From the NCBI GenBank assembly GCA_963665275.2, contig CAXXIN010000014.1, forward strand, positions 96,001-160,000: DNA of 64,000 bases. The letters are read 5' to 3'. Shown here one piece after another: positions 1-15,060 of this stretch (positions are counted from its first letter, which is position 1; each line of letters begins with the position of its first letter). Source of the DNA: Negativicutes bacterium. GTDB taxonomy: Bacteria > Bacillota > Negativicutes > UBA1444. A model generated the notes under the pieces. That model was not told the origin of the DNA. It worked only from the letters and a program-made list of their open reading frames with translations, and made no database searches. Position numbers and translations under genes: made by a program.

Positions 1-313
1 CTAAAGGCGCGACATGTTTGGCGGTGGCCAGTAATCGATCAAAACTTCGTTGGCGCAAATTTTGACGGCAGTATATGCGTAAGTACTCGGGAATCCATAC
101 ACCTAGGGTAATGGCTGAAGTGGATATAAATGCTCCCTTGGCCATGTTGTGCAATTGTTCGTGAAGCCAATCGTGAGCATGCTTTTGCCCGGTTTCGGAG
201 TCGGGGAATCTCTTTGACATACGATCACCACCGGGGGTGGTGATTTGGGCGCGGTAACCGCGTCCTTTTTCATAGTATACAGAGCCGGTATTGTTTAGGC
301 GTTTTTTGGGCAT
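1..313 (-). CDS. Tyrosine recombinase/integrase, N-terminal part (runs off the window)
   Basis: Not in the ORF track. My translation: MPKKRLNNTGSVYYEKGRGYRAQITTPGGDRMSKRF...TLGVWIPEYLRIYCRQNLRQRSFDRL, resembling arm-binding plus SAM-like integrase N-termini; GGAGG RBS before the ATG at 313. Confidence 0.8.
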   Translation of the reverse strand, partial: MPKKRLNNTGSVYYEKGRGYRAQITTPGGDRMSKRFPDSETGQKHAHDWLHEQLHNMAKGAFISTSAITLGVWIPEYLRIYCRQNLRQRSFDRLLATAKHVAPL

Positions 314-328
314 AGGTCCTCCGCAAAG

Positions 329-988
329 TTAATAATTTGCCAAAAACTTAATTTTTTCTTCTGATGGCCAGTTCAAGTAATTTGCAATGAAATCCTCGTG
401 TCCGCTAGGATATTCTTTTAAGGCAATACTACCGTCATCACCCAAACACATTTTTTTGTAGCGACTCATGACCGTCCATGCGTCTTTAACGGACACAATA
501 ATATCAGTACGGTGGAGACCAGTCTCTAATTTTGATATTTCATAGCCAAGATTAAAGAATGTGTTAATTAGACTAACAAATCCCAAAAACTCGAAGCTTC
601 CTAAGGAGGTTTGAGTTTTTTCTATCAAATCTCCTTCCGCATCATGGACAAAGAAAAAGGGTGTCCCGGGATGCATCGGAAAATAGCCAAAAGAATACCT
701 AAACGAGCCTTCTACTACAGTGCCGTTGCTTGAGCGCAGATTGCGATATTGCATCATCCCGTCTGGCTCAGAAAAAAGGCGCGATTTGCGCCCGACAAGA
801 TAGTCTAAAGACACATTGAAAAAATTGGCAAGAGTGATAATAACATCTAACGGCGGTAATCGAATAGCGGTTTCCCAATGGCCGACTCCTTGCTTCGAGT
901 GCGAAAGTATGTTGCCAAGTTGTTCAAGCGTTAGATTGCGCTCTAACCGAAGCTCCTTTAGACGTTTGCCGAAAATATTTTGTGACAC
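329..988 (-). CDS. XRE-family HTH repressor with C-terminal extension
   Basis: FGKRLKELRLERNLTLEQLG...WET...LANFFNVSLDYLVGR is a classic Cro/C1 HTH; co-oriented with the integrase. Confidence 0.85.
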   Translation of the reverse strand: MSQNIFGKRLKELRLERNLTLEQLGNILSHSKQGVGHWETAIRLPPLDVIITLANFFNVSLDYLVGRKSRLFSEPDGMMQYRNLRSSNGTVVEGSFRYSFGYFPMHPGTPFFFVHDAEGDLIEKTQTSLGSFEFLGFVSLINTFFNLGYEISKLETGLHRTDIIVSVKDAWTVMSRYKKMCLGDDGSIALKEYPSGHEDFIANYLNWPSEEKIKFLANY

Positions 989-1003
989 ACAAAATCCTCC
1001 CTA

Positions 1004-1060
1004 TTGACCGTCTACCAATTGTAGACTATTATATAGGCAAGTGGTCTACAAAATGTAGAC
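1004..1060 (+). promoter_or_regulatory. Genetic switch: sigma70 promoter with two palindromic operators
   Basis: TTGACC(1004-1009)-17 bp-TATTAT(1027-1032); operators GTCTAC-N5-GTAGAC at 1010-1026 and 1044-1060. Confidence 0.8.
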
Positions 1061-1084
1061 AATAATGATTCGGGGGCAATAATT

Positions 1085-1276
1085 ATGAAGAGAATTAGAC
1101 TGATTGCTGCAAGAAAAAAACAAAAAATGACCCAAAAGCAAGTTGCACTTGCAATTGGACTAAAAACACGGCAAGCCTATTCACATATTGAGCTTGGGCG
1201 AAGAGGTACTTCTGTGCAAAAATGGGATGCGGTCGAAGATCTTTTTGGGATCGATCAGCGCATTTTACGCAAATGA
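1085..1276 (+). CDS. Cro-like small XRE HTH regulator
   Basis: 63 aa, MTQKQVALAIGLKTRQAYSHIELG HTH, divergent from the repressor. Confidence 0.85.
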   Translation: MKRIRLIAARKKQKMTQKQVALAIGLKTRQAYSHIELGRRGTSVQKWDAVEDLFGIDQRILRK

Positions 1277-1332
1277 TTAATTAGAGATTATCACATTGTG
1301 CTTAGAAAACATAGGTTTTGAGGTGATTTTGA

Positions 1333-1665
1333 TTGGATACAACAGATGCCCATACTCCTGCTTTTGCGTTTCCAGCTAAATTTGCGAAAATAACTGGTTT
1401 GTCTGCGAAAGAAGTGCGGCGGCTGTGTTTACAAAAAGTTCTACCCAACGAAAAGACGCGAAAAGGCTTTCGAATTGATGTAGAGGCGGGCTTGATAGTT
1501 TTGCATGAACGTGCAGCAGGATTTGTCGGACATGATTGGCGATATAACCAACGAGATATCCCTTCGAGTCCACAGTATAAGAAGAAACAGAAAACAAAAG
1601 TGGCAGACGGGTTCATTACTGCACTTAATGCATTAAAAGGTGGTAATGATCATGGAAGAAATTAA
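1333..1665 (+). CDS. Excisionase-like DNA-binding protein
   Basis: FAKITGLSAKEVRRLC...KGFRIDVE resembles winged-HTH Xis; position after cro; GAGGTG RBS. Confidence 0.6.
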   Translation: MDTTDAHTPAFAFPAKFAKITGLSAKEVRRLCLQKVLPNEKTRKGFRIDVEAGLIVLHERAAGFVGHDWRYNQRDIPSSPQYKKKQKTKVADGFITALNALKGGNDHGRN

Positions 1666-2464
1666 ATGGATCAAAATTACGACTGGTGTATTTGATAACC
1701 GAAAAATCAAACAAATTGATGCCCTTCCAGATTCAGATTCGATATTGGTCATTTGGTTTAAATTGTTGTGTCTGGCCGGTACCGTAAATGAGCGTGGATA
1801 CTTACTTATGACAGATAACATAGCGTATACGGATGAAATGTTGGCTGGCGAATTTAAACGCTCCTTGAACACCGTGCGGTTTGCTCTTCTAACATTTCAA
1901 AAATTTGGGATGATTGAACTTGATGTCGCTCCCCAAGACCAAAAAGTTATTCGTGTGAAAAACTGGGAAAAGTATCAAAGTGTTGACGGGATGGAGAAAG
2001 TAAAAATGCAATCCCGAGGCCGTTCAAAAAAATATAGAGACACGCAAAAGTTATTATTGTTGGAAGCCAAAGGAAGTAATGACCGTCACGTGACGCGTGA
2101 TGTGACGCATCACGATGAAATCACGTCACGTCACCCAACAGAGAGAGAGAAAGAGGAAGAGAAAGATACTACTCTCTCTATTACAGATGAAACTGTGGAT
2201 AAGTTGATAGAAACATTGCGAAACAATGAAATAAAAGTTATCAATGAACGAGACCTCAAGACGATCAAGGAATGGCTGTATATTTATAAAATTGAGCAAA
2301 TCGAGAATGCCATTGCCCAAAGCCGGGAAAGTGGTGCGGAGTATATCTCATCCGTTGATAAAAAATTAAAAGGGAGCGCTGTGGATGGAATCAAAAGACA
2401 AAAACAAAGACATGGAACAGCTCTTTGCAAGAATCCTAACCCGGACTACACACAATCTCTCTAA
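1640..2464 (+). CDS. Phage replisome organiser / replication initiator
   Basis: WIKITTGVFDNRKIKQI...IWFKLLCLAG...NWEKYQ N-terminal domain typical of phage replisome organisers. Confidence 0.85.
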   Translation: MVMIMEEIKWIKITTGVFDNRKIKQIDALPDSDSILVIWFKLLCLAGTVNERGYLLMTDNIAYTDEMLAGEFKRSLNTVRFALLTFQKFGMIELDVAPQDQKVIRVKNWEKYQSVDGMEKVKMQSRGRSKKYRDTQKLLLLEAKGSNDRHVTRDVTHHDEITSRHPTEREKEEEKDTTLSITDETVDKLIETLRNNEIKVINERDLKTIKEWLYIYKIEQIENAIAQSRESGAEYISSVDKKLKGSAVDGIKRQKQRHGTALCKNPNPDYTQSL

Positions 2465-3443
2465 TGAAGTCGCGGAAACTATAGTTTCGCAAGAAGAGAA
2501 AGAATGGTTACGAAAATTGGAAAGAGCCGGAGTGCAAAAGCGCTATCAAGGATGCACGATCGACAAACTTTTTGAAAAAAAGGTTTCAACACAAATTAAT
2601 GATTCCATAGCTCCCAAAACTGGTGTGTTAATAAACAAGTGGGCAATTGCTAGCAAGCAAGAACTTGAGCGAATTGAGAGGCGGTATACTGCAGGCAGAA
2701 TAGTTGAACTGCGAGCAAAGTCCATCGCCGGGAACTTCGATTTATTCCACCTGCAAAAAATACATAAGCAAATCTTTCAGGATATATATGCATGGGCAGG
2801 AAAAATCCGTAGGGTGAACATCTCCAAGGGGGACGTGTTTTGCCTGCCGGAGCATATTGAGGGAGCCTCAGGCGACATCTTTCGAAAGCTAGACCGGCAA
2901 AACCACCTGAAAGAATTAAACGAGGCGGATTTTGCTGCCAAGGCAGGTGAACTGCTTTCCGACCTGAACCACCTTCACCCCTTCCGGGAAGGCAACGGTC
3001 GATCGCAGCGAGAATTTATCAGCCAGCTGGCTGAAGAAAACGGATATCATCTTGATTGGGAGAAGATATCCAAGGAGCGAATGATCGAAGCATCCATTGA
3101 AGGCATGCGGGCCAAAGACGACAAGCTGAAGGTAATATTCCGAGAAATCATTTCTCAGGCAACGAATCAAGAATCCAGATATGTAGGGCAGCAGGTCCGG
3201 CCAACGAAAGGAAAAACAATAATGCGTGAATCAATAGCGGAATCCGTGCGGCAGGCAATAGCTAGTCTGCGCATGGAGGGATTGGATCTTGCGCCAGAAG
3301 AAATCGCCGACCTTGAGCGTGTTGCAAGAGGTGAAAATCTTATTGAGCAACATATTGCGGATCTCAATGCATGGGTTAAACTACGTCGGACCGAACACCC
3401 TGAACTGTGTACTGCGAGAAACCGGAGAAATGATGAAAAATAA
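2385..3443 (+). CDS. Fic-domain AMPylase, chimeric (DnaC-like N-terminal remnant + Fic + VbhA-like C-terminus)
   Basis: Canonical HPFREGNGRSQR Fic motif; C-terminal AIASLRMEG inhibitory-helix-like motif. Confidence 0.8.
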   Translation: MESKDKNKDMEQLFARILTRTTHNLSNEVAETIVSQEEKEWLRKLERAGVQKRYQGCTIDKLFEKKVSTQINDSIAPKTGVLINKWAIASKQELERIERRYTAGRIVELRAKSIAGNFDLFHLQKIHKQIFQDIYAWAGKIRRVNISKGDVFCLPEHIEGASGDIFRKLDRQNHLKELNEADFAAKAGELLSDLNHLHPFREGNGRSQREFISQLAEENGYHLDWEKISKERMIEASIEGMRAKDDKLKVIFREIISQATNQESRYVGQQVRPTKGKTIMRESIAESVRQAIASLRMEGLDLAPEEIADLERVARGENLIEQHIADLNAWVKLRRTEHPELCTARNRRNDEK

Positions 3444-4020
3444 CCCTAACCCGTCACTTATCTTGCCCATGCCAGGAAAAAATAACCAATGCGTAAAGAA
3501 ATATTTGGTACAAATGCGTAAAATCCCCGCACCACTGGTCAGCGAGGTGATCCGACAAGGCAAAGTATATGAAGATCAGCACAAACGCTGCATTTTTGTG
3601 TCACACGACCCAGACGGCAACCCGATGGGGGCTTATATACGCGGCACATACCATGTGCTCGATAAAATCGTCAACAGCGCCAAGGGTCATGATGGCACAT
3701 GGGGATGGCGAATCGGCGATCTAGAATACCGCGCCAAGTTGATAGTCGTTGAGAGCCCTATCGACGCCATGAGCTACAAAGTGCTTTTTAATCCCAAAGC
3801 GATCATTTTAGCCATCGGTGGGCTAAACCTCAAATGTCTAAAGACTGTGGCTGCCTGGCTGCAGCCGGAATATATTACCGTGGCTGTGGATAATGACCCG
3901 GCTGGGGTACAATTTCGACAAACTTGTGCCAAACTGTTTCTTGACGCTGCTGTCGAACATCAGGTTCCAAAGTATAAGGACTGGAACGAGGATTTGATTA
4001 TGGGCGGGCTGCTGGCTTAA
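3430..4020 (+). CDS. Toprim/primase-like protein (DUF3991+toprim type)
   Basis: VVESPIDAMSY, AVDNDPAG and KDWNEDL toprim motifs; start placed at the ATG after GGAG, in frame with ORF 3289..4020. Confidence 0.8.
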   Translation: MMKNNPNPSLILPMPGKNNQCVKKYLVQMRKIPAPLVSEVIRQGKVYEDQHKRCIFVSHDPDGNPMGAYIRGTYHVLDKIVNSAKGHDGTWGWRIGDLEYRAKLIVVESPIDAMSYKVLFNPKAIILAIGGLNLKCLKTVAAWLQPEYITVAVDNDPAGVQFRQTCAKLFLDAAVEHQVPKYKDWNEDLIMGGLLA

Positions 4021-4348
4021 TTCTGTGCGAGGTTTCGTAATGGGCAAAAACCTTTGTCTTATCGTGTGCAAATAAGTAACAAAATAGTTTATTTCAAACA
4101 AATGGGGAAAGCATGAATTGGAATCAGTTATTATCGGTTTTCAAAGATGCGCAAAGGTTGAAAGATCGGTTCAGCCGACATTCTCGCTCATGGGGCGTGT
4201 TGAAGTCGTCGACGTGGATATCCTGCAGACCGCGACCGGAGAACCGGAGAATAGCGAAGCCGCATAAAAACAGCGAGGCCGCCGAAAGGCGGCCTCGCAT
4301 TGTTCAAACCGGGAGTTGTTTTGGTTGAAGCACTACAGATTAGTTCGG

Positions 4349-4451
4349 CATACCCCACAAATTCGTCGTTTGTTTTGCTTTGTGGGGTATGTTGTATTGG
4401 CTTGCATTCATACCCCACAATGGATATAATTTGATTAACTTGTGGGGTATG
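4349..4451 (+). promoter_or_regulatory. Promoter overlapped by two 12-bp inverted-repeat operators
   Basis: CATACCCCACAA-N19-TTGTGGGGTATG at 4349-4391 and 4409-4451; TTGCAT(4402-4407)-17 bp-TATAAT(4425-4430). Confidence 0.85.
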
Positions 4452-4466
4452 AAGAGGTGAAGGATC

Positions 4467-4802
4467 ATGTCGCAACAACAAAAGGAAAATAAGCCTGTGG
4501 TAATTCACGGAGTGCTGCGCGATGAATATGAACGAATAGGCCGCATGGTGGAAATACACCGGGCGGAAATAGCAAAAATGCCGAAAGGCGTTGTTCGAGA
4601 AAAGCGGGTACAGGGACGTGTTTATCGTTACTTGCACTTTCGCGATTCGGACGGAAAAGTTAAAGATGTTTACATCAAGGGAGGCGATTCCGCAATCGCT
4701 GCAGTGAAGGATCAAGTTGCTCAGCGCAAACAGCGGGAAAGCGCTTTGAAGCAGTTTCGTCGGGAACAAAAAGAGATTGAAAGGATCTTGAAGAAAAAAT
4801 GA
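4467..4802 (+). CDS. Small basic DNA-binding protein, putative antitoxin/autoregulator
   Basis: MPKGVVREKRVQGRVYRYLHFR...VKDVYI beta-rich basic motif; overlaps the next gene (ATGA coupling). Confidence 0.6.
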   Translation: MSQQQKENKPVVIHGVLRDEYERIGRMVEIHRAEIAKMPKGVVREKRVQGRVYRYLHFRDSDGKVKDVYIKGGDSAIAAVKDQVAQRKQRESALKQFRREQKEIERILKKK

Positions 4803-5494
4803 TTTCTGTTGCGCAAAAAGCTTCTTTCCACGAAATATTAACGATTCTGTCGGAGCATGGGCTGCTGGATCATCTTATATTGATTGGTAGTTGGGCCGAA
4901 TTCATTTATGAGGCATCCGGAACTCTCGGTACCTTTGAAGCAAATCTGCGTACTCGTGACTATGATTTTTTTGTTCCCAATGCAGCCAGGCCATCGCCGC
5001 CGGTTAATTTGAAAGAGATTCTGAGTTCGCATGGATGGATTGCGATGGATGATCCCATGACGGGCGCTACAAAATTTCTCAAAACAACCGAAACGATGGA
5101 CGTGTTTGAAGTCGAATTTTTGGTTGGAATGCGGGGGAAAGGGTGCGAATCTATTTTTCCGGTAAAATCCTTGGCAATAAAAGGGCAAAGCCTGCGGGAG
5201 CTAAATATGCTGGATGAAGAGCCGCTGGAAATTCAGTATGGGAAGCAGCTTTTGCGAGTGCCGAGCCCGGTTCAATATGTGTTGCACAAGATATTGATTA
5301 ACCCGTCAAGGTTAACTGAAGAAAAGCAACTAAAAGATATCCAGGCGGTTCGGAATCTATTGGACAATATGAGAACCAATGTATGGCGGAGCTCGCTGAA
5401 TAGAGCTTATGGAGTTTTAACCAAAAAACAAAAGAAGGTTATAAAAGAAGTGACGGCTTCACAGGCACTTTATCTGGGGTTTGAGCTCGATTGA
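4799..5494 (+). CDS. Nucleotidyltransferase-fold protein (GSU2403/AbiEii-like), putative toxin
   Basis: LIGSWA...LRTRDYDF (G-S and DxD polymerase-beta motifs), HK and KDI C-terminal motifs. Confidence 0.75.
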   Translation: MISVAQKASFHEILTILSEHGLLDHLILIGSWAEFIYEASGTLGTFEANLRTRDYDFFVPNAARPSPPVNLKEILSSHGWIAMDDPMTGATKFLKTTETMDVFEVEFLVGMRGKGCESIFPVKSLAIKGQSLRELNMLDEEPLEIQYGKQLLRVPSPVQYVLHKILINPSRLTEEKQLKDIQAVRNLLDNMRTNVWRSSLNRAYGVLTKKQKKVIKEVTASQALYLGFELD

Positions 5495-5566
5495 TTCATT
5501 TGGCAGACTGTTTTTTCTGTGCCATTCATTTAGGAAGTGGAAATTTATAATTGTGGAGGGAGATAG

Positions 5567-6343
5567 ATGGGGGAAAAAGATTTTTCCGCATTAAATTCAT
5601 CGGATACAATGGACGACATGAGTAAAATATGGAGATACATGGATATGGCAAAGTTCGTCTCCATGCTGTTAGAAGAAGCGCTATATTTTGCATGTCCCTG
5701 TGAATTTGTCGACCCGTATGAAGGTTATCTCCCTAAAAGCTATATGGAAAATTTAAAGCAAAAGAGAGAATGGGATTTAGACTTTATGCGCCACTCGGCG
5801 GCATGGGATAACGATGAAAACCTTCGGAACGAATATGCCAAACTGCAAAATGACCTTGAAGAGAATCTGAATAGAGCGCCTTTTGAGGCAGCATGTAAAT
5901 TTGGAGTGAACTGTTGGCATGCAAGCGAGTATGAATCAGAAGCAATGTGGAAAATGTATTCATCGTATGGGATAGCTATAGAGTCAACAATTGGACAGTT
6001 AAGAAATTCGATACTCAACAAAGAACATTTAAGAATTGCCAATGTTAGATATGCAGATTTTGAAAAAGACCAAATTGAACAAGGGCATAGACACTATGCG
6101 CTATTTATGAAAAGAAAGTCTTTTGAACATGAAAAAGAACTGCGCGCAACGGTGCTGCTCGAAAAAGAAAAACAAGGCGTTCTTATGAAATGTGATTTAG
6201 ATACTTTGATCACCAGAATTCACATATCTCCTTTCGACAAGCCATATTTTAAAAAGATCATAGAAAATCTCTGTTCCGGAAAACTAAGCAATATTCGGAA
6301 GCCCGTTATTCAATCAACATTATTCGATAAACCTTATTTATAG
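5567..6343 (+). CDS. DUF2971-like protein
   Basis: IWRYMDMAKF...DPYEG, NCWH...ESEAMWKMY, KRKSFEHEKELR motifs. Confidence 0.7.
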   Translation: MGEKDFSALNSSDTMDDMSKIWRYMDMAKFVSMLLEEALYFACPCEFVDPYEGYLPKSYMENLKQKREWDLDFMRHSAAWDNDENLRNEYAKLQNDLEENLNRAPFEAACKFGVNCWHASEYESEAMWKMYSSYGIAIESTIGQLRNSILNKEHLRIANVRYADFEKDQIEQGHRHYALFMKRKSFEHEKELRATVLLEKEKQGVLMKCDLDTLITRIHISPFDKPYFKKIIENLCSGKLSNIRKPVIQSTLFDKPYL

Positions 6344-6474
6344 GCGACTGGCATGCTTACAGAGTCGGATTGCCATTTGTGGCAGTATTTCTCTTAAGCC
6401 GATGTGCATAATGTCTCTGGAAGACAGTTTATATATTTCCTTCGAAAAAGGGCACGTTTTTACATGAAGGCTCT

Positions 6475-6547
6475 GTTCGCAAAAGTATACTTTTGCGAAC
6501 GGAGGAAAAGTGCGTTCGTAAATGCTTTATAAAATGGTTTACGAACG
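6475..6547. repeat. Paired palindromes sharing the GTTCGYAAA half-site (res-site-like or RNA hairpins)
   Basis: Perfect 26-bp palindrome GTTCGCAAAAGTATACTTTTGCGAAC (6475-6500) and CGTTCGTAAA-N15-TTTACGAACG (6513-6547). Confidence 0.85.
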
Positions 6548-6811
6548 TTCGCGGTGAGTCATGGACATTTATGGGCGGAAGATAGTGCTCATATCATTTT
6601 CTTGCCCAAATTAATAGCTGGCTTGAATCCGTGGGGTATTTCAAGGGGGTGATGCTTGTAAGGAGGATTCTGTAGAAACAAGAGGAATAATGACTAACAT
6701 AGCTGATTGATTTGGTGTGCAAGCCTTACATATAGAGACAGTCAGAAACGGATTTTAAAACTTGCATTTTGCTTTGTAACAAGTGCAATAAATATGAAGT
6801 GAGGCAATCAG

Positions 6812-8353
6812 GTGAAAATTGGTGCTGAATCCATAAAATGGGCATTAAATCATTTGTCAACCATTGGTGATTCCGATTTATTCCCCATACCAATAGAATT
6901 TGAAGCTATAGTAGGTCAAGGTGAGACAGCCATTAATTTTCTGTCTGACCTTGATCTTAATCAAGTTAATCCAGGATCATCTAGACGCTTTATCGTTCCT
7001 AAAGATGAATTATCATACCGAGTTGCCACGCAACTAGACCCATTAGATAGCATTTTCTTAGCTGCAATAATGCATCAATTTGGAGCTGAAATTGAGAGCA
7101 AACGGAGACCGGTGGGGGAAAACAAAGTTTTTAGCTATAGATTTGCGCCAGATTCCAGTGGAAACTTTTATGATAAGAAATTTTCATGGAATGAGTTTTG
7201 GTTAAATTGCTTTGAAAAATCCAAGTCTTTTGAATACGCACTTGTTTTGGATATTTCCGATTTCTATAACCAGATTTATCACCATACTTTAGAGAATCAG
7301 CTTGTTGAATGTGGCTTGCCAAATCCGGCAATCAAATGGATCCTTGCCTTATCGGAAAGTATAACGGCAAAAACGTCTAGAGGAATTCCGGTTGGTCCGC
7401 ACTCTGCTCATTTGTTAGCTGAAATTTCCTTAAAACCAGTTGATAATAGCTTGGTCACTCGAGGAATTGAATTTTGTCGCTTTGTTGACGATATTATTGT
7501 TTTTTGCAATTCAGCAACCGAAGCGAGAATCGATATTTTGACAATAGCGGATGTTTTAGATAAGCAGCAACGCCTTATTTTGCAGCGGCAGAAAACAAAA
7601 ATTCTTGATAAAAAAAGTTTTCAGAAATACTGTATAGAAATGGTTGAAGATCGACCCATTAATGATTTAGAGACCAATCTGTTAAAAATTATTCGTAAGC
7701 ACTCAGGGGGCAACCCATATGGCATAGTCTATTTGAATCAGCTTTCACCGGAGGAACTTAGCTCATTTAGTGAGAACTCAATAACAAAAATATTTAACGA
7801 CTATCTAGCACAAAATGAACCAGATTATACGCGCCTTCGCTGGTTTATCCGAAGACTTTCCCAAGCTGGTCATCCTGGCGCGGTAAATTATTGCGTCGAT
7901 AATATTCATAAGTTAATGCCTGCTTTGAGTGACATCTGTCAATATTTTGTTTCAGTAAGTAATTTCAATACATCAGAATGGCCTATATTGGGCGAGAAAA
8001 TACTAAGCTTGATTGAGGATCCAATAATTCAAGCAAATGAATATTACCAGCTTTCAATCTATTCCCTATTTAATCGAAAGCTCGAACTTAACCACTTCGG
8101 GAAAATGCTTAAGAATTATCAAGCAAACCCCTCAAACTTAAAACGAGAAACCATTATTGCAGCTTTCAAGTACGATGCAGCAGATTGGCTGAGAGAATTG
8201 AAAGAACATTATCAAGGGATGGATCGTTGGATGCAAAGAGCATTCATTGTTGCATGTTCAAAATTGCCCAAGGAGGAAAAGAGGTTTTTTTTAGGCAATG
8301 TTACTAAGAATGATCCGCTGGACGAGATACTCATCAAGTGGGCTAAGGGATAG
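6812..8353 (+). CDS. Reverse transcriptase, UG/Abi (DRT-like) type with C-terminal helical domain
   Basis: RT motifs VPK..SYR, LDISDFYNQI, GIPVGPHSAHLLAE, catalytic RFVDDI, KT; N-terminal DSDLFP; about 230-aa helical C-terminus; GTG start. Confidence 0.9.
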   Translation: MKIGAESIKWALNHLSTIGDSDLFPIPIEFEAIVGQGETAINFLSDLDLNQVNPGSSRRFIVPKDELSYRVATQLDPLDSIFLAAIMHQFGAEIESKRRPVGENKVFSYRFAPDSSGNFYDKKFSWNEFWLNCFEKSKSFEYALVLDISDFYNQIYHHTLENQLVECGLPNPAIKWILALSESITAKTSRGIPVGPHSAHLLAEISLKPVDNSLVTRGIEFCRFVDDIIVFCNSATEARIDILTIADVLDKQQRLILQRQKTKILDKKSFQKYCIEMVEDRPINDLETNLLKIIRKHSGGNPYGIVYLNQLSPEELSSFSENSITKIFNDYLAQNEPDYTRLRWFIRRLSQAGHPGAVNYCVDNIHKLMPALSDICQYFVSVSNFNTSEWPILGEKILSLIEDPIIQANEYYQLSIYSLFNRKLELNHFGKMLKNYQANPSNLKRETIIAAFKYDAADWLRELKEHYQGMDRWMQRAFIVACSKLPKEEKRFFLGNVTKNDPLDEILIKWAKG

Positions 8354-8406
8354 CAAGACTTTAATCATTCGTAATAATGATTCCATACGGATAATCTCAG
8401 GAGGTT

Positions 8407-11400
8407 TTGTTGTTGCATCTTATAACTGAAAATCAACTGGATGAATGGGTTCGCGGGCATGCGCAAGATGCGCAAAGAGTTATTGTTGAATTAGTTTGGC
8501 GCCTTGTCGCGGCATCGAGTCCACATCCACGAGAGCGGCGGTTTCCTTTGGGAGATAGCATCGGCCAACACGGACCTGACGGGATTCTTGACGCTATTGA
8601 AGAATTTAACCCGTTCTTTTCTGAAGGAATATCATATTGGGAGATAGGCACTAACAATAACGCAGGAAAAAAAGCGACGGATGACTATACGTCAAGCACT
8701 GCGACAACTCCCCAAGAAATAAGGCACAATGCGGCATTTATTTTTGTCACACCTTTATCAGGTAGGCGTGATTGGCAATATACCTGGAAGGAAGAACAAC
8801 AAGCAACTTGGCTTGAGACCAGACGCCAACGTGCCGAATGGCGAGATATTCGTGTTATCGACGGCACAAAACTGATTGATTGGTTGCATAGTTTTCCAGC
8901 AGTGGAACGTTGGTTGGCAGGAAAAATGGGTAGAATTTCAATCAATCAAGCCGAAACACCAACAGAATTGTGGGATGAGCTGAAAACTATTGGAGAGCCG
9001 CCACCATTACCTCCCGAATTATTTCTTGTTAACCGCGAGGAAGGACGTAATAGAATTGCAGACGTATTTGCAGGGACTATTGTGCAACTGCGTCTCGATA
9101 CCCACTTTCCTGATCAAATTCCCGAATTTGTTGCCGCGCACATTGCAACCCTTAATAAAGAAGAAAATGCAGAAGCAGCCGGTCGATGCATTATCTTAAA
9201 TAGCATAGATGCTTGGCAGGCTGTTTTATCATTACTAACGGTTCCGCATGTTTTTGTGGCGAACTTCGCATTCGAAGATACAGATGTGGCAGTGACAAGA
9301 TTATTGCAAAGAACTCAGCGGATGGGACACGCTATTATATTTCGTGGGTTGCCAGGAGGAATTCCGCACCCTAATAGAGTAAAGATTGTTAACCCCAAGA
9401 GTTATGAAATTCAACAAGAGCTTGAAAAGGCCGGATACTTGCCAGAGCGGGCCCGTGTTCTTGCACAAAAGAGTGATGGCAATATTGGGTCCCTGTTAAG
9501 ATGTATACAAAACCTTTCGATAATGCCGGAATGGTCGCAGGGAACGGCTGCAGCTGAACTTGCCGTCGCGGTTATGTTGGGATCATGGTCTGGAAATGCA
9601 AATGCAGACCAAAGTTTGGTTGAAAAACTGTCGGGAGAGCCTTTCGGGGAGTGGGTTGACAAATTGCGTGCAGTGACACTTCTTCCCGCCACTCCCCTAA
9701 TGCAGCGGGAAGGAGCATGGAAGTTTATTTCTCGTTACGAAGGGTGGTATTCGCTGGGACCGAGAATTCACGATGACATTCTTGATCGTTTTCAAGAAAT
9801 AACGATAACAGCGTTAAGTGAAAGAGACCCCCAATTTGATTTACCACCAAACGAAAGATATATGGCCAATTTTCAAGGTAAAACCCTTGCGCATTCTTCA
9901 TTACTTCGGCAGGGCTTAGCGGAGAGTTTGGCATTGCTTGGCAGTCATCCCGCTGCCTTGATATCTTGTTCTGCAGGAACAGCAGAAGCCACCGCAAATA
10001 TTGTTGTTCGCAAACTATTGGCATTATCAGAATGGATAGATTGGGCCAGCCTGGATAGAGTATTGCCATTATTGGCTGAAGCGGCTCCTGAACAATTTTT
10101 AAGCGCGGTAGAGAATTCATTAAAAAGTACCCCTTGTCCTTTTGATATGTTGTTTGCACAAGAGGGCGATGGATTAACAGGAGGAAATTGCACAACCGGA
10201 CTACTTTGGGCGTTGGAAACACTTGCGTGGGACAATAATCATTTTATTCGGGTAATGTTAATTTTAGGTGACTTGGCGCACAGAGATCCAGGTGGTAAGT
10301 GGGTAAATCGTCCATCGAATTCGCTTACAACAATATTACTGCCATGGTTACCACAAACCTGTGCACCCATTACTAAACGTTTGCGTTGCGTTGAACTTCT
10401 TTTAACGCGTGTTCCTGAAGTTGCTTGGAAACTAATTCTAACTCTATTGCCAGATTCTCACCAGTCATCTTCAGGAACACATAAACCAACATGGCGTAGC
10501 TATATCCCTGATAATTGGACTAACACAGTCAAAAATTCAGAGTACTGGACACAAGCTAATGCCTATTTAGAAATGGCTCTTAATACAGCAAAAAATGATT
10601 GTTCAAAGCTGGTAGAGCTAATACGGCGGATCGATGACTTCCCTCCGCCTTCACGTGACGAAATGCTGGGATATTTGAAGTCGGATTCCGTGTTGGTGTT
10701 ACCAGATGAACAGCGTATAAAGTTGTGGACCGAACTAGTGGCTTTGGTATCAAAGCACAGGAAATTCTCCGACGCTGAATGGGCTTTGGAAGAAGCTGTG
10801 TTGACCAGGATTGATGAGGTAATTGAATGCTTAAGACCTCATTCTCCATTTTTCCTACATCAACGTTTATTTGGGGAAAGAGAATGGGAATTGCTCGATG
10901 AAATAGGGGACTATCAAGAGCAATTTAAAGCACTCGAAGTTCGACGGCAGAGCGCCGTAAATGAATTGTTTTTGTCCGGTGGTATTAACGTTGTCTTAAA
11001 ATTTGCACAGACAGTTGATTTACCATGGAGAGTTGGCTTTTCTTTTGGCGCAACAGCGCCTCAGGACGATATTTTTCCTGAAATACTGCCAATAATGCTC
11101 TTGGAGTCCGAATCCACATCTAAGGCAGTGTCGCAATTTGCCGGAGGTTTCGTGCAAGGGCGGTATACGACATTGGGATGGAAATGGGTCGACGGTATTG
11201 ATATGATCCAATGGGATTCCTCGCAAATCGGGCAGTTTTTGAGCTATTTGCCATTCACCTTCGATACTTGGCACAGGGTTGATCAGCTTTTGGGAACTAG
11301 CGTACATTATTATTGGACGATGACCAATGTCAATCCATACGAACCTAAAGAGGGCTTGGAGTATGCGATCGATCTTCTAGTCCAACATGGGCGACCCAAT

Positions 11401-12240
11401 GATGCTGTTAGGTGCCTTGAAGCAATTCTTCACGAAAAGAAAACCCTCAACATAACGCAAGCGATGCAAGTTTTAAAAGCATTACTTAAGTCTTCAACAA
11501 AAAGCCATGGAATTGACGATGATGCCGTATTGAAAATAATCAAAGCTCTTCAGAATGATGAAAAGGCTAATCCTGAAGAACTATTACAGATCGAATGGGC
11601 TTATCTGCCCCTGCTTGACCAGTATCGCAAAGCTGCGCCACGTTTTCTCGAATTAAGATTAGCTAAAGAACCAGAGTTCTTTTGTGAAATCATCAGAATT
11701 ATATTTAAATCCAATAAAGCTGAACAGCCACCAGAAGAGAGCACGGAGGAAAGAAAATTTATTGCACGAAATGCATATGAGCTACTTCGAAAGTGGAAAA
11801 CACCGCCCGGGATTCAACCTAGCGGATTATTTGACGGAGATATCTTTTTCTCTTGGATAGAACGGGTCAAAAAGGCTTGTGCAGAATCTGGCCATTTGGA
11901 AATAGCCCTAACTATGGTTGGCCACGTCTTGATTCATGCTCCTCGAGACCCTGATGGTTTGTGGATTCACCAGTCTGTAGCAGATGCCTTGAATGCACCC
12001 GATGCTGATGATATGAGAAATGGTTTTCGCACTGAATTGTTTAATTCCAGAGGGGTACATTCGTGGACATTAGGGAATGAGGAAAAACAACTGTCGGAGA
12101 AATACAAACAAATGGCTGAAGAGCTAGAAGAGCACGGGTATATTAACTTTTCGGTAACTCTTCGGAATCTTGCCGATTCTTATGCTCGAGACGCCGAAAG
12201 AGAAGCCGCGAGAGATCCGTTTGACGATTGGAACCATTAG
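8407..12240 (+). CDS. 1277-aa putative defence protein with N-terminal restriction-endonuclease-like motif and helical C-terminus
   Basis: GPDG...YWEIGT...DY resembles a PD-(D/E)XK-like core; long Trp-rich helical body; GGAGG RBS; 53 bp after the RT. Confidence 0.6.
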   Translation: MLLHLITENQLDEWVRGHAQDAQRVIVELVWRLVAASSPHPRERRFPLGDSIGQHGPDGILDAIEEFNPFFSEGISYWEIGTNNNAGKKATDDYTSSTATTPQEIRHNAAFIFVTPLSGRRDWQYTWKEEQQATWLETRRQRAEWRDIRVIDGTKLIDWLHSFPAVERWLAGKMGRISINQAETPTELWDELKTIGEPPPLPPELFLVNREEGRNRIADVFAGTIVQLRLDTHFPDQIPEFVAAHIATLNKEENAEAAGRCIILNSIDAWQAVLSLLTVPHVFVANFAFEDTDVAVTRLLQRTQRMGHAIIFRGLPGGIPHPNRVKIVNPKSYEIQQELEKAGYLPERARVLAQKSDGNIGSLLRCIQNLSIMPEWSQGTAAAELAVAVMLGSWSGNANADQSLVEKLSGEPFGEWVDKLRAVTLLPATPLMQREGAWKFISRYEGWYSLGPRIHDDILDRFQEITITALSERDPQFDLPPNERYMANFQGKTLAHSSLLRQGLAESLALLGSHPAALISCSAGTAEATANIVVRKLLALSEWIDWASLDRVLPLLAEAAPEQFLSAVENSLKSTPCPFDMLFAQEGDGLTGGNCTTGLLWALETLAWDNNHFIRVMLILGDLAHRDPGGKWVNRPSNSLTTILLPWLPQTCAPITKRLRCVELLLTRVPEVAWKLILTLLPDSHQSSSGTHKPTWRSYIPDNWTNTVKNSEYWTQANAYLEMALNTAKNDCSKLVELIRRIDDFPPPSRDEMLGYLKSDSVLVLPDEQRIKLWTELVALVSKHRKFSDAEWALEEAVLTRIDEVIECLRPHSPFFLHQRLFGEREWELLDEIGDYQEQFKALEVRRQSAVNELFLSGGINVVLKFAQTVDLPWRVGFSFGATAPQDDIFPEILPIMLLESESTSKAVSQFAGGFVQGRYTTLGWKWVDGIDMIQWDSSQIGQFLSYLPFTFDTWHRVDQLLGTSVHYYWTMTNVNPYEPKEGLEYAIDLLVQHGRPNDAVRCLEAILHEKKTLNITQAMQVLKALLKSSTKSHGIDDDAVLKIIKALQNDEKANPEELLQIEWAYLPLLDQYRKAAPRFLELRLAKEPEFFCEIIRIIFKSNKAEQPPEESTEERKFIARNAYELLRKWKTPPGIQPSGLFDGDIFFSWIERVKKACAESGHLEIALTMVGHVLIHAPRDPDGLWIHQSVADALNAPDADDMRNGFRTELFNSRGVHSWTLGNEEKQLSEKYKQMAEELEEHGYINFSVTLRNLADSYARDAEREAARDPFDDWNH

Positions 12241-12467
12241 TTGACCGGATGGAAAGCGGGGGTCATATTAGATGCGATCACAAATTTATTGATTCAAATA
12301 AAGTGTAGAAAAAGAACTGGGTGCAACGCGGGAGCAACGGGTAGAAAAAACAAGGTATAATTCGGTGTTTTATGGCATGGTTGAAAAAGAAGAAAAACCG
12401 CAGTAAACGCTAGAATAATAGTATTTACGCGTAAAACTGACCCAATGAAGTGTTTGATTTCCTCGGA

Positions 12468-12512
12468 TTCCCAAGCCGTGGGTCGCGAGTTCGAATCTCG
12501 TTGCCCGCTCCA
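12468..12512 (+). other. att site: duplicated 3' half of tRNA-Gly(CCC)
   Basis: TTCCCAAGCCGTGGGTCGCGAGTTCGAATCTCGTTGCCCGCTCCA = anticodon loop CCC, T-arm GTTCGAATC and acceptor 3' strand with CCA; no matching 5' half upstream. Confidence 0.85.
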
Positions 12513-12522
12513 GTAATTTCGG

Positions 12523-12555
12523 GCCTTCCAGCCTTCGGGTTTGGAAGGCTTTTTT
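12523..12555 (+). terminator. Rho-independent terminator after the tRNA fragment
   Basis: GCCTTCCA...TGGAAGGC stem followed by a T run. Confidence 0.8.
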
Positions 12556-12590
12556 GCGTTTGGTTCCTAATTTGGGTCCTTTGCCAATGT

Positions 12591-13274
12591 TTAGATCATG
12601 ATCGGCATCAAAAACTGGACGGTAGAAATGGTGATGATAGCCGCCAAGATCATGGACACGCAGGCAACGGTGCCGGTGGTCGCGCTAAATTGAAAGGCCC
12701 TGACTGTTCCAACTGCGTGGGAGCTAGTGCCGAAGAGCACGCCACGTGCAATTTCGCTTTCGATTTTGAAAAACTTGATAACGAAAGGGCCGAGTATTGA
12801 ACCCAGGATTCCGGTCATGATGACGATGACGGCAGTAACGGACGGCACGCCGCCAATAAGCTGAGAAATATCCATCGCAATCGGGGTGGTCACGGAACGT
12901 GGAATGAGGCTCCCGATCAATTGTTTGTCGACACTCAGCCCTTCGGCAATCCACGCGGAAGAAAGCATCGCGATCACAGAACCGAGGATCACGCTCGGAA
13001 TTATTTCCACAGCATGCTTTTTCAGGATTGCGCGATATTTGTAGAGTGGTATGGCAAAAGCGATCGTGGCAGGCTGCAACATGATATTCAGCCATTTGGC
13101 GCCGCTATTATAGGTATCATAGGAAATATGAGCGCCAAGCAGTAATACCGCCAAAAGCGTCGGGACTGTAACGAGCGGAGAAAAATAGATCCGAGGGTTT
13201 TGCTTGTAGAACCATTTGGCAAAAGAGTACAGTGCGATGGTTGCAATAAAACTTAATAACGGCAGGCTGTTCAT
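12591..13274 (-). CDS. cidB: LrgB/CidB family membrane protein
   Basis: PATIAFAIPLYK, PRSVTTPIA and GTSSHAVGT motifs. Confidence 0.85.
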   Translation of the reverse strand: MNSLPLLSFIATIALYSFAKWFYKQNPRIYFSPLVTVPTLLAVLLLGAHISYDTYNSGAKWLNIMLQPATIAFAIPLYKYRAILKKHAVEIIPSVILGSVIAMLSSAWIAEGLSVDKQLIGSLIPRSVTTPIAMDISQLIGGVPSVTAVIVIMTGILGSILGPFVIKFFKIESEIARGVLFGTSSHAVGTVRAFQFSATTGTVACVSMILAAIITISTVQFLMPIMI

Positions 13275-13669
13275 GATTTTCTCCTCATAATGGCAATTTT
13301 TTTGGCGACCAAGCCGGAACTTGCCATAATCGTAAAGGTGCCGACGATAACCACGGTTAAAATCTGTAATCCATTGGTGAGCAGCAATGATTGATACTGG
13401 ATAATTCCTACCGCCGAAGGAATGAAGAATAAAAGCAGTTCCGCTAGCAATAGATTGGCGCCAAGTTCAATCCAGTCCAATCGCAGTATGTTGAATTGAA
13501 GCAGGGAAAATAAAATCACTAGCCCAATAATACTGCCGGGCAACGGGAGGGAAAACAGGGCCGATATATAGTTTGAAATTAATGACAAGGAACACAAGAG
13601 AGCTATTTGTGCGATCCCTTTCAATACACTCTTCATCATGGCGTCACTCCCTACTGGTTTCTGATTCAA
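13271..13669 (-). CDS. cidA: CidA/LrgA family holin-like protein
   Basis: PLPGSIIG...LLLFFIPSAVG motifs; coupled to cidB. Confidence 0.85.
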   Translation of the reverse strand: MNQKPVGSDAMMKSVLKGIAQIALLCSLSLISNYISALFSLPLPGSIIGLVILFSLLQFNILRLDWIELGANLLLAELLLFFIPSAVGIIQYQSLLLTNGLQILTVVIVGTFTIMASSGLVAKKIAIMRRKS

Positions 13670-13751
13670 AGTATACAGGGGACAGTGTTATGTGTAAAAT
13701 ACATATATAGTATTGATTGCATACGTTTCATCTATGAGGAGGCGGGGCCCG

Positions 13752-14651
13752 TTGGAGATCCGGAATTTAGAATATTTTCTTGAAGTTGTGCGCACGAAAA
13801 GTTTTACGAAAGCTGCGCAAAATCTATTTATTACCCAGCCCACGATCAGCAGAATGATCAAAAACCTGGAAGACGAGCTGGAAGTGGTTTTGTTTGAACG
13901 GTTGGGAAAAGGCGTGGAATTAACAGATGCTGGACGGACCATTTTGTTCCAGGCGCAAAACATTGTGAGCTCGGTTCATAGTCTGTCGGATGAATTGGCT
14001 GATGTGATGCAGCTAAAAAAAGGGCAAATAAAAATTGGCTTGCCGCCGATGATCGGCGCAAACTTTTTTCCCCAGGTAATCGGACAGTTCAATAAGACCT
14101 ATCCCAATATAAAAGTTCAATTATGGGAAAGCGGCGCCAAAAAGGCTGAAGATGATGTTGCGAACGGAAACCTGGAAATTGGGGTCACGCTTCTGCCGGT
14201 TCAGGAAGACGTTTTCCAATGGTTTTCATTTGTACAGGATAAATTGAGCGTGGTGGTGCATCCATCCCATCGATTGGCGGGGAAACCTTCAATATCGCTG
14301 CTCGAGCTGGCGTCAGATGGGTTTATTTTGTTTAATGAAGACTTTTTACTGCATGACCGGATTATCAATGAATGTGTGCGCGTTGGGTTTCAACCGCAGG
14401 TTGTTTATGAAAGTTCACAATGGGATTTCATTAGCGAAATGGTGGCAGCTGGTTTGGGAGTGGCATTATTGCCGGGAACCATCTGCAACCAGTTGGACAA
14501 ACAGCGCTTGAGTGTTTTGCCGCTGGTTCAACCAGAGATCCCCTGGCATCTGGCGGTAATCTGGCGAAAGAACCGCTATCTATCCTTTGCCGCGCGGGAA
14601 TGGCTGGAATTTACCCGCAAGCTGTTGCAGGCAAACGAGAAAGAATTCTGA
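13752..14651 (+). CDS. cidR: LysR-family regulator (CidR-like)
   Basis: SFTKAAQNLFITQPTISRMIKNLE HTH; divergent from cidAB; TTG start after GAGGAGG. Confidence 0.85.
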   Translation: MEIRNLEYFLEVVRTKSFTKAAQNLFITQPTISRMIKNLEDELEVVLFERLGKGVELTDAGRTILFQAQNIVSSVHSLSDELADVMQLKKGQIKIGLPPMIGANFFPQVIGQFNKTYPNIKVQLWESGAKKAEDDVANGNLEIGVTLLPVQEDVFQWFSFVQDKLSVVVHPSHRLAGKPSISLLELASDGFILFNEDFLLHDRIINECVRVGFQPQVVYESSQWDFISEMVAAGLGVALLPGTICNQLDKQRLSVLPLVQPEIPWHLAVIWRKNRYLSFAAREWLEFTRKLLQANEKEF

Positions 14652-15060
14652 TGGTGAATGGATTAAAGAAGCCAGCTTTTCATTTTAAGAAAAGCTGGCT
14701 TTTACTATGGAATAATAAGAATTTTAGAAAGTTAATTGCTCGGTTCGGTCGCTTGTTTAGTGAGCGTAATACAAGGTGTTTTCCAGCAAATATTACGCGG
14801 TCTTAGGAATGGTAGGTGGAGCCGGAAGCGGATTTTTCCGCAGAGAAAAAGGTGAAAGAAATTATCCTTCCGATTTCTTTATGGTTATTGTGAAGATATT
14901 CAAAGGTTCGTTATAAAATCAAGTGCAACAGAACCCAAGGCTGTTAAGTAAACAGCCATAGTGAAAAACGGTGTATCGTTTATGATGTAATCGTCCAAAC
15001 CCAATCATCCATAAAAAGTTTCGACGCCGAATTTGTTTGTCGCAAAAGCAGGCTTCATTC

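Follow-up and report, generated by a model that had tools for sequence, protein, structure and literature searches.

UG7 reverse transcriptases (RTs) were named 'DRT type 8' by Mestre et al. 2022, who describe them as defence-associated RTs (DRTs) together with a PD-(D/E)XK nuclease of 'cluster 17' (PMC9226505). UG7 with cluster 17 defends against T5, and mutation of the nuclease active site abolishes this defence (PMC9226505). Two UG7 variants, which track the phylogeny, are distinguished in the same paper: one is tied to cluster 17 (150/385 members) and the other is 'not associated with any gene' (165/358, figures as printed; PMC9226505). For DRT8, the table of a 2026 review gives that the 'dedicated mechanism [is] not yet established' (PMC13213688). 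AbiK, Abi-P2, DRT4, and DRT1 are single proteins that synthesize random or semirandom DNA without a template (PMC11077055, PMC12783706, PMC13275509). An RT that matches the UG7 group is encoded in a stretch of 64,000 nucleotides from a Negativicutes bacterium (assembly GCA_963665275.2, contig CAXXIN010000014.1, positions 96,001 to 160,000), which is called here the window, and its gene is followed by that of a protein of 1277 amino acids (aa), both being carried by an integrated mobile element. The best explanation of this locus, which we consider likely as a whole, is that the right end of the element is a row of defence-type genes that were acquired separately, among them a stand-alone UG7 RT and a separate cassette for an Avs8-like protein, and that the leader in front of the RT gene is not a conserved RT-associated RNA.

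PD-lambda-4, the described system to which the large protein is compared, is reportedly a system of Vassallo 2022. It has been renamed Avs8 and combines a STAND nucleoside triphosphatase (NTPase) with an Mrr nuclease, its trigger being the HK97-fold major capsid proteins (bioRxiv 10.1101/2025.07.02.662641; bioRxiv 10.64898/2026.01.04.697583). KpAvs8, which is an Avs8 homologue, has degenerate Walker motifs (bioRxiv 10.64898/2026.01.04.697583).

The RT gene (6812-8353, + strand) encodes 513 aa from a GTG start in the table of open reading frames (ORFs). The active site of the protein is the motif FVDD at residues 224-227, in the context CRFVDDIIVF, and residues D147, D150, D226, and D227 are invariant among 24 homologues, so the catalytic residues of the polymerase are intact. 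The protein matches the Pfam model RVT_1 (3.5e-17) and the PADLOC model Drt8 (E=1.3e-157, 524 bits), the latter with residues 5-512 on profile positions 4-490 of 493. The second-best PADLOC model, RT_UG21, reaches 172 bits, and NCBIfam Drt2 gives just 8.8e-6. By profile, the protein is a UG7 / DRT type 8 reverse transcriptase of the UG/Abi lineage, which was placed by PADLOC profile scores and identity bands in place of a phylogeny, and it fits the published partner-less UG7 variant. An earlier interpretation of this DNA, called here the sequence-only reading, had described a 513-aa RT of UG/Abi defence type with an FVDD active site, which agrees with the ORF, the RVT_1 match, the invariant aspartates, and the PADLOC profiles; its suggestion of an unnamed DRT type does not survive the scores of 524 vs 172 bits. 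In Class 1 UG/Abi RTs the polymerase continues at its C-terminus into HEAT-like (alphaRep) repeats, and the one pointer to the long helical C-terminus named in the sequence-only reading is a precomputed HEAT_2 match in an RT homologue, P0169. The RT has no match in the phage collection, and its matches among plasmids are to megaplasmids only. Six other ORFs with an RT domain are present in the same genome (G000 C3:73628-74050, C7:161207-161629, C7:284626-285048, C13:27674-28096, C7:249192-249638, and C13:227827-228273), in two size classes of 458-497 aa (four ORFs with identical scores) and 619 aa (two ORFs), and they have the appearance of retroelements present in many copies, which may be group II introns.

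Nuclease-bearing members of DRT type 8 are found in the family of the Citrobacter record L048, where 4/301 genomes have a Drt8 RT. In three of these four (L115-L117) the RT has 542-548 aa, and its stop codon is overlapped by an ORF of 245-251 aa that matches PADLOC RTasPDDEXK (E=2.5e-69). These nuclease-bearing RTs score 501-549 bits with Drt8, so the full-length match of the RT at 6812-8353, with 524 bits, is at their level. However, it is merely 24-26% identical to the RTs of L115-L117, and the ~246-aa nuclease that defines the type was not found in its locus or genome as searched. A hidden Markov model of the three true RTasPDDEXK nucleases recovered only those three among the ORFs of 86 RT loci and of the first 20 kb of the window, and PADLOC RTasPDDEXK had no match in the genome that carries the window, in a search whose controls also gave no signal anywhere. 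The small DRT8 nuclease and the 1277-aa protein are unrelated by hhalign (probability 0.13%), and the latter (P0002) has no match at E<=1 with PADLOC PDLC03797.

The partner-less UG7 variant, as far as the consulted sections of Mestre 2022 describe it, shares with this locus an RT of UG7 profile and variable neighbours, and no difference between the two was found. An alignment of 24 homologues led to 157 confirmed RT loci in contigs of one genome per species, and the best 80 of these were kept, which are 41-87% identical to the RT and come from Bacillota, cyanobacteria, proteobacteria, Bacteroidota, Planctomycetes, Dehalococcoidia, and archaea. Gene neighbours are variable across these 80 loci, and none of them has the small nuclease or a relative of the 1277-aa protein (0/80 by tblastn, best E=0.6), while at least 3.9 kb of sequence lies downstream of the RT in 62 of them. 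RT homologues thus occur without this partner, and they match a described DRT.

A stand-alone RT of this group would most likely act on its own, as a single-gene system of the kind known from other Class 1 UG/Abi RTs. By analogy with these enzymes, phage infection would lead the RT to make DNA without a dedicated ncRNA (non-coding RNA) template, in a protein-primed and template-independent way, and this synthesis would halt the infection. AbiK, Abi-P2, DRT4, and DRT1 belong to the same RT lineage but to different UG groups, with PADLOC scores far below that of Drt8.

The large gene (8407-12240, + strand, 1277 aa) has a TTG start in the ORF table, and a GGAGG sequence at 8400-8404 precedes it, so the true start is more likely the TTG at 8410 or 8413. 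Its family is large and highly conserved: of 8000 scored candidates, 1240 clusters match at E<=0.001, all unnamed, with 54-60% identity across phyla, and one relative, P0003, is 95% identical to the protein. The protein matches phrog_18693 along its full length (E=1.6e-149), and it matches no curated family: searches of Pfam, NCBIfam, and PDB sequences returned nothing usable, and no PADLOC model falls below E=0.01. The ESM Atlas gives for it only 'hypothetical' clusters and relatives with helix-turn-helix (HTH) domains, and no structure, and a single weak partial match, of 24% identity, was found in the phage collection by tblastn.

Models made with AlphaFold2 (AF2) from small alignments reached a predicted local distance difference test score (pLDDT) of 83.5 for residues 1-420 and of 81.5 for residues 421-1277. 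Residues ~2-173 adopt a PD-(D/E)XK / restriction-endonuclease fold by VIA-align, in which model residues 22-173 match AF1548 (1y88) with Z 9.6 and a root-mean-square deviation of 2.6 over 112 residues, followed by R.BspD6I (9.5), FokI (8.9), and MspJI (8.2), and residues D58, E79, and K89 are invariant in 8/8 aligned nuclease-bearing members. Residues 180-383 have an AAA+/STAND-like fold, which VIA-align matches to RFC and ClpA (Z 10.5) and then to DnaA, ORC/Cdc6, and a plant NLR (8.2). The VIA-align matches are only moderate, because Z 7-8 is common background; the top Foldseek rows for the protein include SAMD9 and Avs4. The C-terminal 857 residues (~421-1277) consist of helices throughout; their structural matches, with low TM-scores, are CAND1, transportins, and importin-beta, and this points to an alpha-solenoid. 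The 'PD-(D/E)XK-like' giant of the sequence-only reading therefore stands for the N-terminal ~170 residues and not for the rest of the protein.

This order of an Mrr/PD-(D/E)XK-type N-terminus, an AAA+/STAND-type domain, and a long helical C-terminus is the domain order of Avs8, to which the protein is also nearly equal in length (1277 vs 1283 residues) in a colinear alignment. The comparison by hhalign with three PD-lambda-4A proteins gives a probability of 96.2% (E=2.1e-9) over 549 colinear columns. PADLOC PD-Lambda-4_A matches the protein in one stretch at E=0.01, and 7/18 members of the family at E<=0.01, the best at 8.8e-6. Differences from Avs8 are found in the NTPase motif and in the second gene. 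Where six Avs8-like proteins have GLSGVGKT or a close variant, the 1277-aa protein reads LDTHFPDQ, and a Walker A motif (GxxxxGK[ST]) is present in 0/18 family members. PD-Lambda-4_B (Avs8B) comes after the A gene in L145, L147, and L148, whereas tblastn found none near the large gene in 25 family loci or in the window. By its profiles the 1277-aa protein is a remote relative of Avs8 and not a member of it, and the description as an Avs8 (PD-lambda-4A)-like protein draws on AF2, VIA-align, Foldseek, hhalign, and phrog_18693.

Among relatives of the large protein the N-terminal module is exchanged. A lipase-like alpha/beta hydrolase is found in one of them and additional HTH_3 domains in several, N-termini of unrelated sequence also occur, and relatives of 1182 aa and 932 aa match only from residue ~351 or ~382 onward. 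N-terminal effector swapping is typical of defence proteins. Because the swapped N-termini fit a sensor with exchangeable effectors, the protein can be read, from its predicted fold and motifs, as a stand-alone, NTPase-dead Avs8-like sensor of phage proteins with a nuclease effector. In this reading, a conserved phage protein would be recognised by the alpha-solenoid; assembly would proceed through the NTPase-like domain, in which the P-loop is lost, and would be followed by DNA cleavage by the N-terminal Mrr/PD-(D/E)XK-like nuclease. The family of the 1277-aa protein would be an undescribed, widespread, and NTPase-dead branch of Avs-type sensors with swappable effectors.

Alternatively, the large protein may not be an immune sensor and may serve the element in another way, such as maintenance, an addiction module, or DNA processing. 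Such a role would agree with the missing match to a curated family, with the loss of the NTPase motifs in 18/18 members, and with relatives that have HigA-type HTH domains, the automatic names including 'addiction module antidote', but we consider it unlikely in view of an architecture and a length that mirror those of Avs8, of the exchange of N-terminal effectors, the lipase-like hydrolase included, as in defence proteins, of the position of the gene amid defence-type cargo, and of a broken family copy adjoining an Avs8 gene in L154. This copy (L154:6175-9920, on a contig shared with L146) consists of two consecutive ORFs of 669 and 597 aa beside an intact Avs8A, and it looks like a split or broken member of the family, its first part being 26% identical to the N-terminal 400 residues of the 1277-aa protein. 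In four of ten enterobacterial Avs8 loci (L142, L143, L144, and L148) a retron-type RT (PADLOC RT_VI, 8.7e-71) lies directly upstream of Avs8A, and an unrelated 363-aa gene has that position in three other Avs8 loci. The four Avs8-adjacent RTs are 87-100% identical and so probably represent one island variant, not a recurring link between RTs and Avs proteins.

The RT gene runs in the same direction as the large gene, and 53 bases (8354-8406) separate them, as the sequence-only reading had stated, together with the 468 bp of non-coding DNA before the RT. Seen from the comparison of loci, they look like two cassettes with separate histories, which are independent neighbours in a defence hotspot. 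Besides the 80 RT loci described above, loci of the large-gene family were collected from eight genomes (with ~8-kb flanks, one having only 1.9 kb upstream; 24-59% identity) and from 17 IMG/VR viral contigs (26-46% identity), and an RT is present in 0/25 of them (0/8 genomic and 0/17 IMG/VR). Among 401 genomes of the phylum, the large-gene family occurs in eight and Drt8 in five, and two genomes have both, namely the genome of the window and G413, in which 1.87 Mb lie between the two genes. The genome of the nearest RT (L012, 87% identity) is without any relative of the large gene, and its DNA is similar to positions 3001-15000 of the window at 6813-8292 only, with 86% identity, which is the RT ORF alone. 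Conversely, a 13,554-bp contig of run X8 matches the window at 8394-12239 only (181 differences, ~95%), a span that corresponds to the ribosome-binding site and the large ORF, and its flanks are unlike the window on both sides; this contig is as long as the one recorded for P0003. The sequence-only reading had named independent neighbours in a defence hotspot as its fall-back, and this is what the comparative data match.

The proposal that it had preferred, a system of the RT and the giant gene, could take the form of a lineage-specific two-gene system in which the RT, or the DNA that it makes, activates the nuclease of the neighbour, which would replace RTasPDDEXK. The two genes are on the same strand, with a gap of 53 bases and zero terminator-like sites between them, the neighbour has a domain of PD-(D/E)XK fold, and the group of the RT needs a PD-(D/E)XK nuclease in the validated form that Mestre 2022 describes, while the genome itself shows no RTasPDDEXK (the controls of the search being silent too). 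Contigs of run X4, which has another organism label, hold positions 5500-12425 without differences and thus the same arrangement at 100% identity, but an identical copy is not independent and gives no independent support for the linkage. We consider such a system very unlikely, as the two genes co-occur in 0/80 RT loci and 0/25 large-gene loci, the partner family is lacking from the genome of the closest RT relative, elsewhere each gene is found without the other, the similarity stopping where the gene stops, and the small DRT8 nuclease is unrelated to the large protein.

Several points weigh against the reading as separate cassettes. The 80 RT loci, collected by means of two peptide patterns and chosen as the best of 157, are a sample. 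In the 53-base gap the consensus scan found no terminator-like site; the two genes may be co-transcribed here, and neighbours of that kind can cooperate. Mestre 2022 remarks on 'nucleases in trans' (PMC9226505), the UG7 form proven in defence included its nuclease, and for the partner-less variant the consulted sections of that paper report no defence test (PMC9226505). The large protein is linked to Avs8 only at the profile level, and BLASTP of the protein against five Avs8-like proteins returned nothing. Because of the possible co-transcription and of the remark on nucleases in trans, a small residual chance is kept for a functional coupling of the two genes in this single lineage, which is otherwise quite improbable. 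In one form of coupling, which we likewise hold to be a slender prospect, the UG7 RT would have recruited the adjacent Avs8-like protein, and RT-made DNA or a complex of the RT with a phage protein would assemble the P-loop-less STAND-like sensor and fire its nuclease; if true, this would be a new circuit of an RT and a pseudo-STAND protein, in one lineage only.

The ORF upstream of the RT gene ends at 6343, which leaves a non-coding spacer, or leader, of 468 bases (6344-6811, + strand). In the sequence-only reading this leader was hairpin-dense and a structured component of the RT system. The first statement is confirmed in part, by two strong inverted repeats at 6471-6504 (17-nt arms, zero spacer) and 6513-6547 (10-nt arms) and by the fold of the whole leader (z = -2.47), which 2/100 shuffles equal or exceed. 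No ORF of at least 60 aa lies in the leader, and its seven overlapping ORFs of 25-55 aa, all with GTG or TTG starts, are not credible as genes. The leader is unique in its own genome and gives nothing in Rfam at the gathering score or at E<=1, and blastn matched it to none of 81 loci of RT homologues (best E=1.2), L012 among them, in which the RT gene is 86% identical in DNA. Similarity between the upstream regions of the homologues is confined to four groups of nearby loci. In 71 loci, the closest ORF of at least 90 aa on the upstream side is at a median distance of 159 bases from the RT start, with fewer than 150 bases in 33/71 and at least 450 bases in 10/71, and several gaps of 40-86 bases come after ORFs of 403-1169 aa, although some gaps may be shortened by spurious ORFs. 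A conserved upstream ncRNA of the DRT2/DRT9 kind is unsupported, because upstream matches are missing and gaps are short in many homologue loci; like DRT2 and DRT9, the locus has a non-coding region of some size ahead of its RT gene, but the ncRNA of these types is conserved, in the descriptions consulted, whereas here the region is kept in none of the homologue loci.

The leader is probably ordinary intergenic DNA, with a promoter or operator region. Its two palindromes (6471-6504 and 6513-6547, unstranded) have the half-site GTTCG(C/T)AAA in common, which has eight matches at <=1 mismatch in the 64-kb window, all three exact ones within 6471-6547, and they are candidate operator sites. As terminators they were rejected, since the terminator-like sites of the scan sit elsewhere (6369-6386 and 6570-6593) and no T-run is seen by eye after either palindrome, and as operators shared with the repressor region of the element they were rejected because positions 1-6000 of the window have zero copies of the motif. 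In six cyanobacterial loci (L016-L021), ~300 bases 5' of the RT are 69-94% identical, two of the loci having differing upstream genes, and this block could be a shared remnant of a neighbour gene or a local regulatory region. As an ncRNA, these Nostocales blocks were set aside: in four loci they lie mostly inside an upstream ORF of ~880-907 aa, and they have no counterpart near the RT of the window. That the leader encodes a structured ncRNA which serves the RT as template or scaffold, as in DRT2, DRT3, and DRT9, is very unlikely and the least probable of the alternatives, for although it has two strong hairpins and folds somewhat better than shuffles, and several DRT types use an ncRNA adjoining the RT, it lacks a sequence match upstream of the RT in all 81 homologue loci, has no Rfam match, finds no room in many homologues, some of whose short gaps are bounded by large ORFs, and has no equivalent reported for UG7 in the consulted sections of Mestre 2022 (PMC9226505).

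The element that carries both genes is ~14.4 kb long (window -1849..12516) and is inserted in a tRNA-Gly(ccc) gene, as delimited by an att repeat, ARAGORN, and the integrase. ARAGORN places the tRNA-Gly(ccc) gene at G000 C14:94121-94195, ~1.85 kb to the left of the window, and an exact direct repeat of 49 bp, which is the 3' end of this gene, is found at G000 C14:94151-94199 (attL, inside the intact tRNA) and at window positions 12468-12516 (attR, + strand). A terminator-like hairpin of the consensus scan (12530-12550, + strand) comes directly after attR and probably represents the tRNA gene's own terminator, now displaced. The RT gene has a G+C content of 37.5%, the leader one of 40.4%, and the large gene one of 44.2%, and over the element genes listed below it is 37-48%, vs 50.1% for the genome. 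The sequence-only reading was correct in placing AT-rich cargo beside an att site, because of this low G+C content and of the att repeat, the tRNA gene, and the integrase.

From att to att, the element has a Gp49/HigB-like gene, an integrase, a repressor, a replisome organiser, a Fic/VbhA protein, a Toprim protein, an NTP_transf_8 protein, a 258-aa protein, the RT, and the large gene. The Gp49/HigB-like gene, of a toxin family (G000 C14:94668-95039; Pfam Gp49 2.4e-26), lies between attL and the integrase, and no cognate antitoxin gene was identified. The integrase is a tyrosine recombinase-type enzyme of 405 aa on the - strand (G000 C14:95096-96313; Pfam Phage_integrase E=1.3e-23 for the full ORF), whose ORF is mostly left of the window (window part 2-313). 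It is followed by a CI-like HTH repressor (329-988, - strand; Pfam HTH_3 2e-12, Phage_CI_repr 0.0033) and, on the + strand, by the replisome organiser (1640-2464; Pfam Phage_rep_org_N 4e-42), the Fic/VbhA protein (2385-3443; Pfam Fic 2.9e-14 and VbhA 1.2e-6; PADLOC PDC-S04 1.1e-70), and a DUF3991-Toprim primase-like protein (3289-4020; Pfam Toprim_2 3.9e-11). The ORFs of this replication module (1640-4020) overlap as listed, their starts being unrefined. An NTP_transf_8 nucleotidyltransferase (4799-5494, + strand; Pfam NTP_transf_8 7.9e-15) and the 258-aa protein (5567-6343, + strand), which matches the phage-defence candidate PDC-S31 of PADLOC (4.1e-20), come before the leader; together with the Fic/VbhA gene, these two genes are further defence-type cargo of the same element. 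No recognisable phage structural genes are found among the annotated part of the element.

For the families involved, this locus illustrates how weakly a system is supported by adjacency within a defence island, as two cassettes that are 53 bases apart resemble an operon. The described UG7 group gains one more member with this RT, whose gene at 6812-8353 is a clean single-gene example of the partner-less UG7 variant, which is common, since all 80 nearest loci (the best 80 of 157), from several phyla including archaea, belong to it. Of the two genes, the large one is the more interesting: its protein is remotely related to a described sensor family and lacks the P-loop. As its family appears to be P-loop-less throughout, it could show whether such sensors assemble without nucleotide binding.

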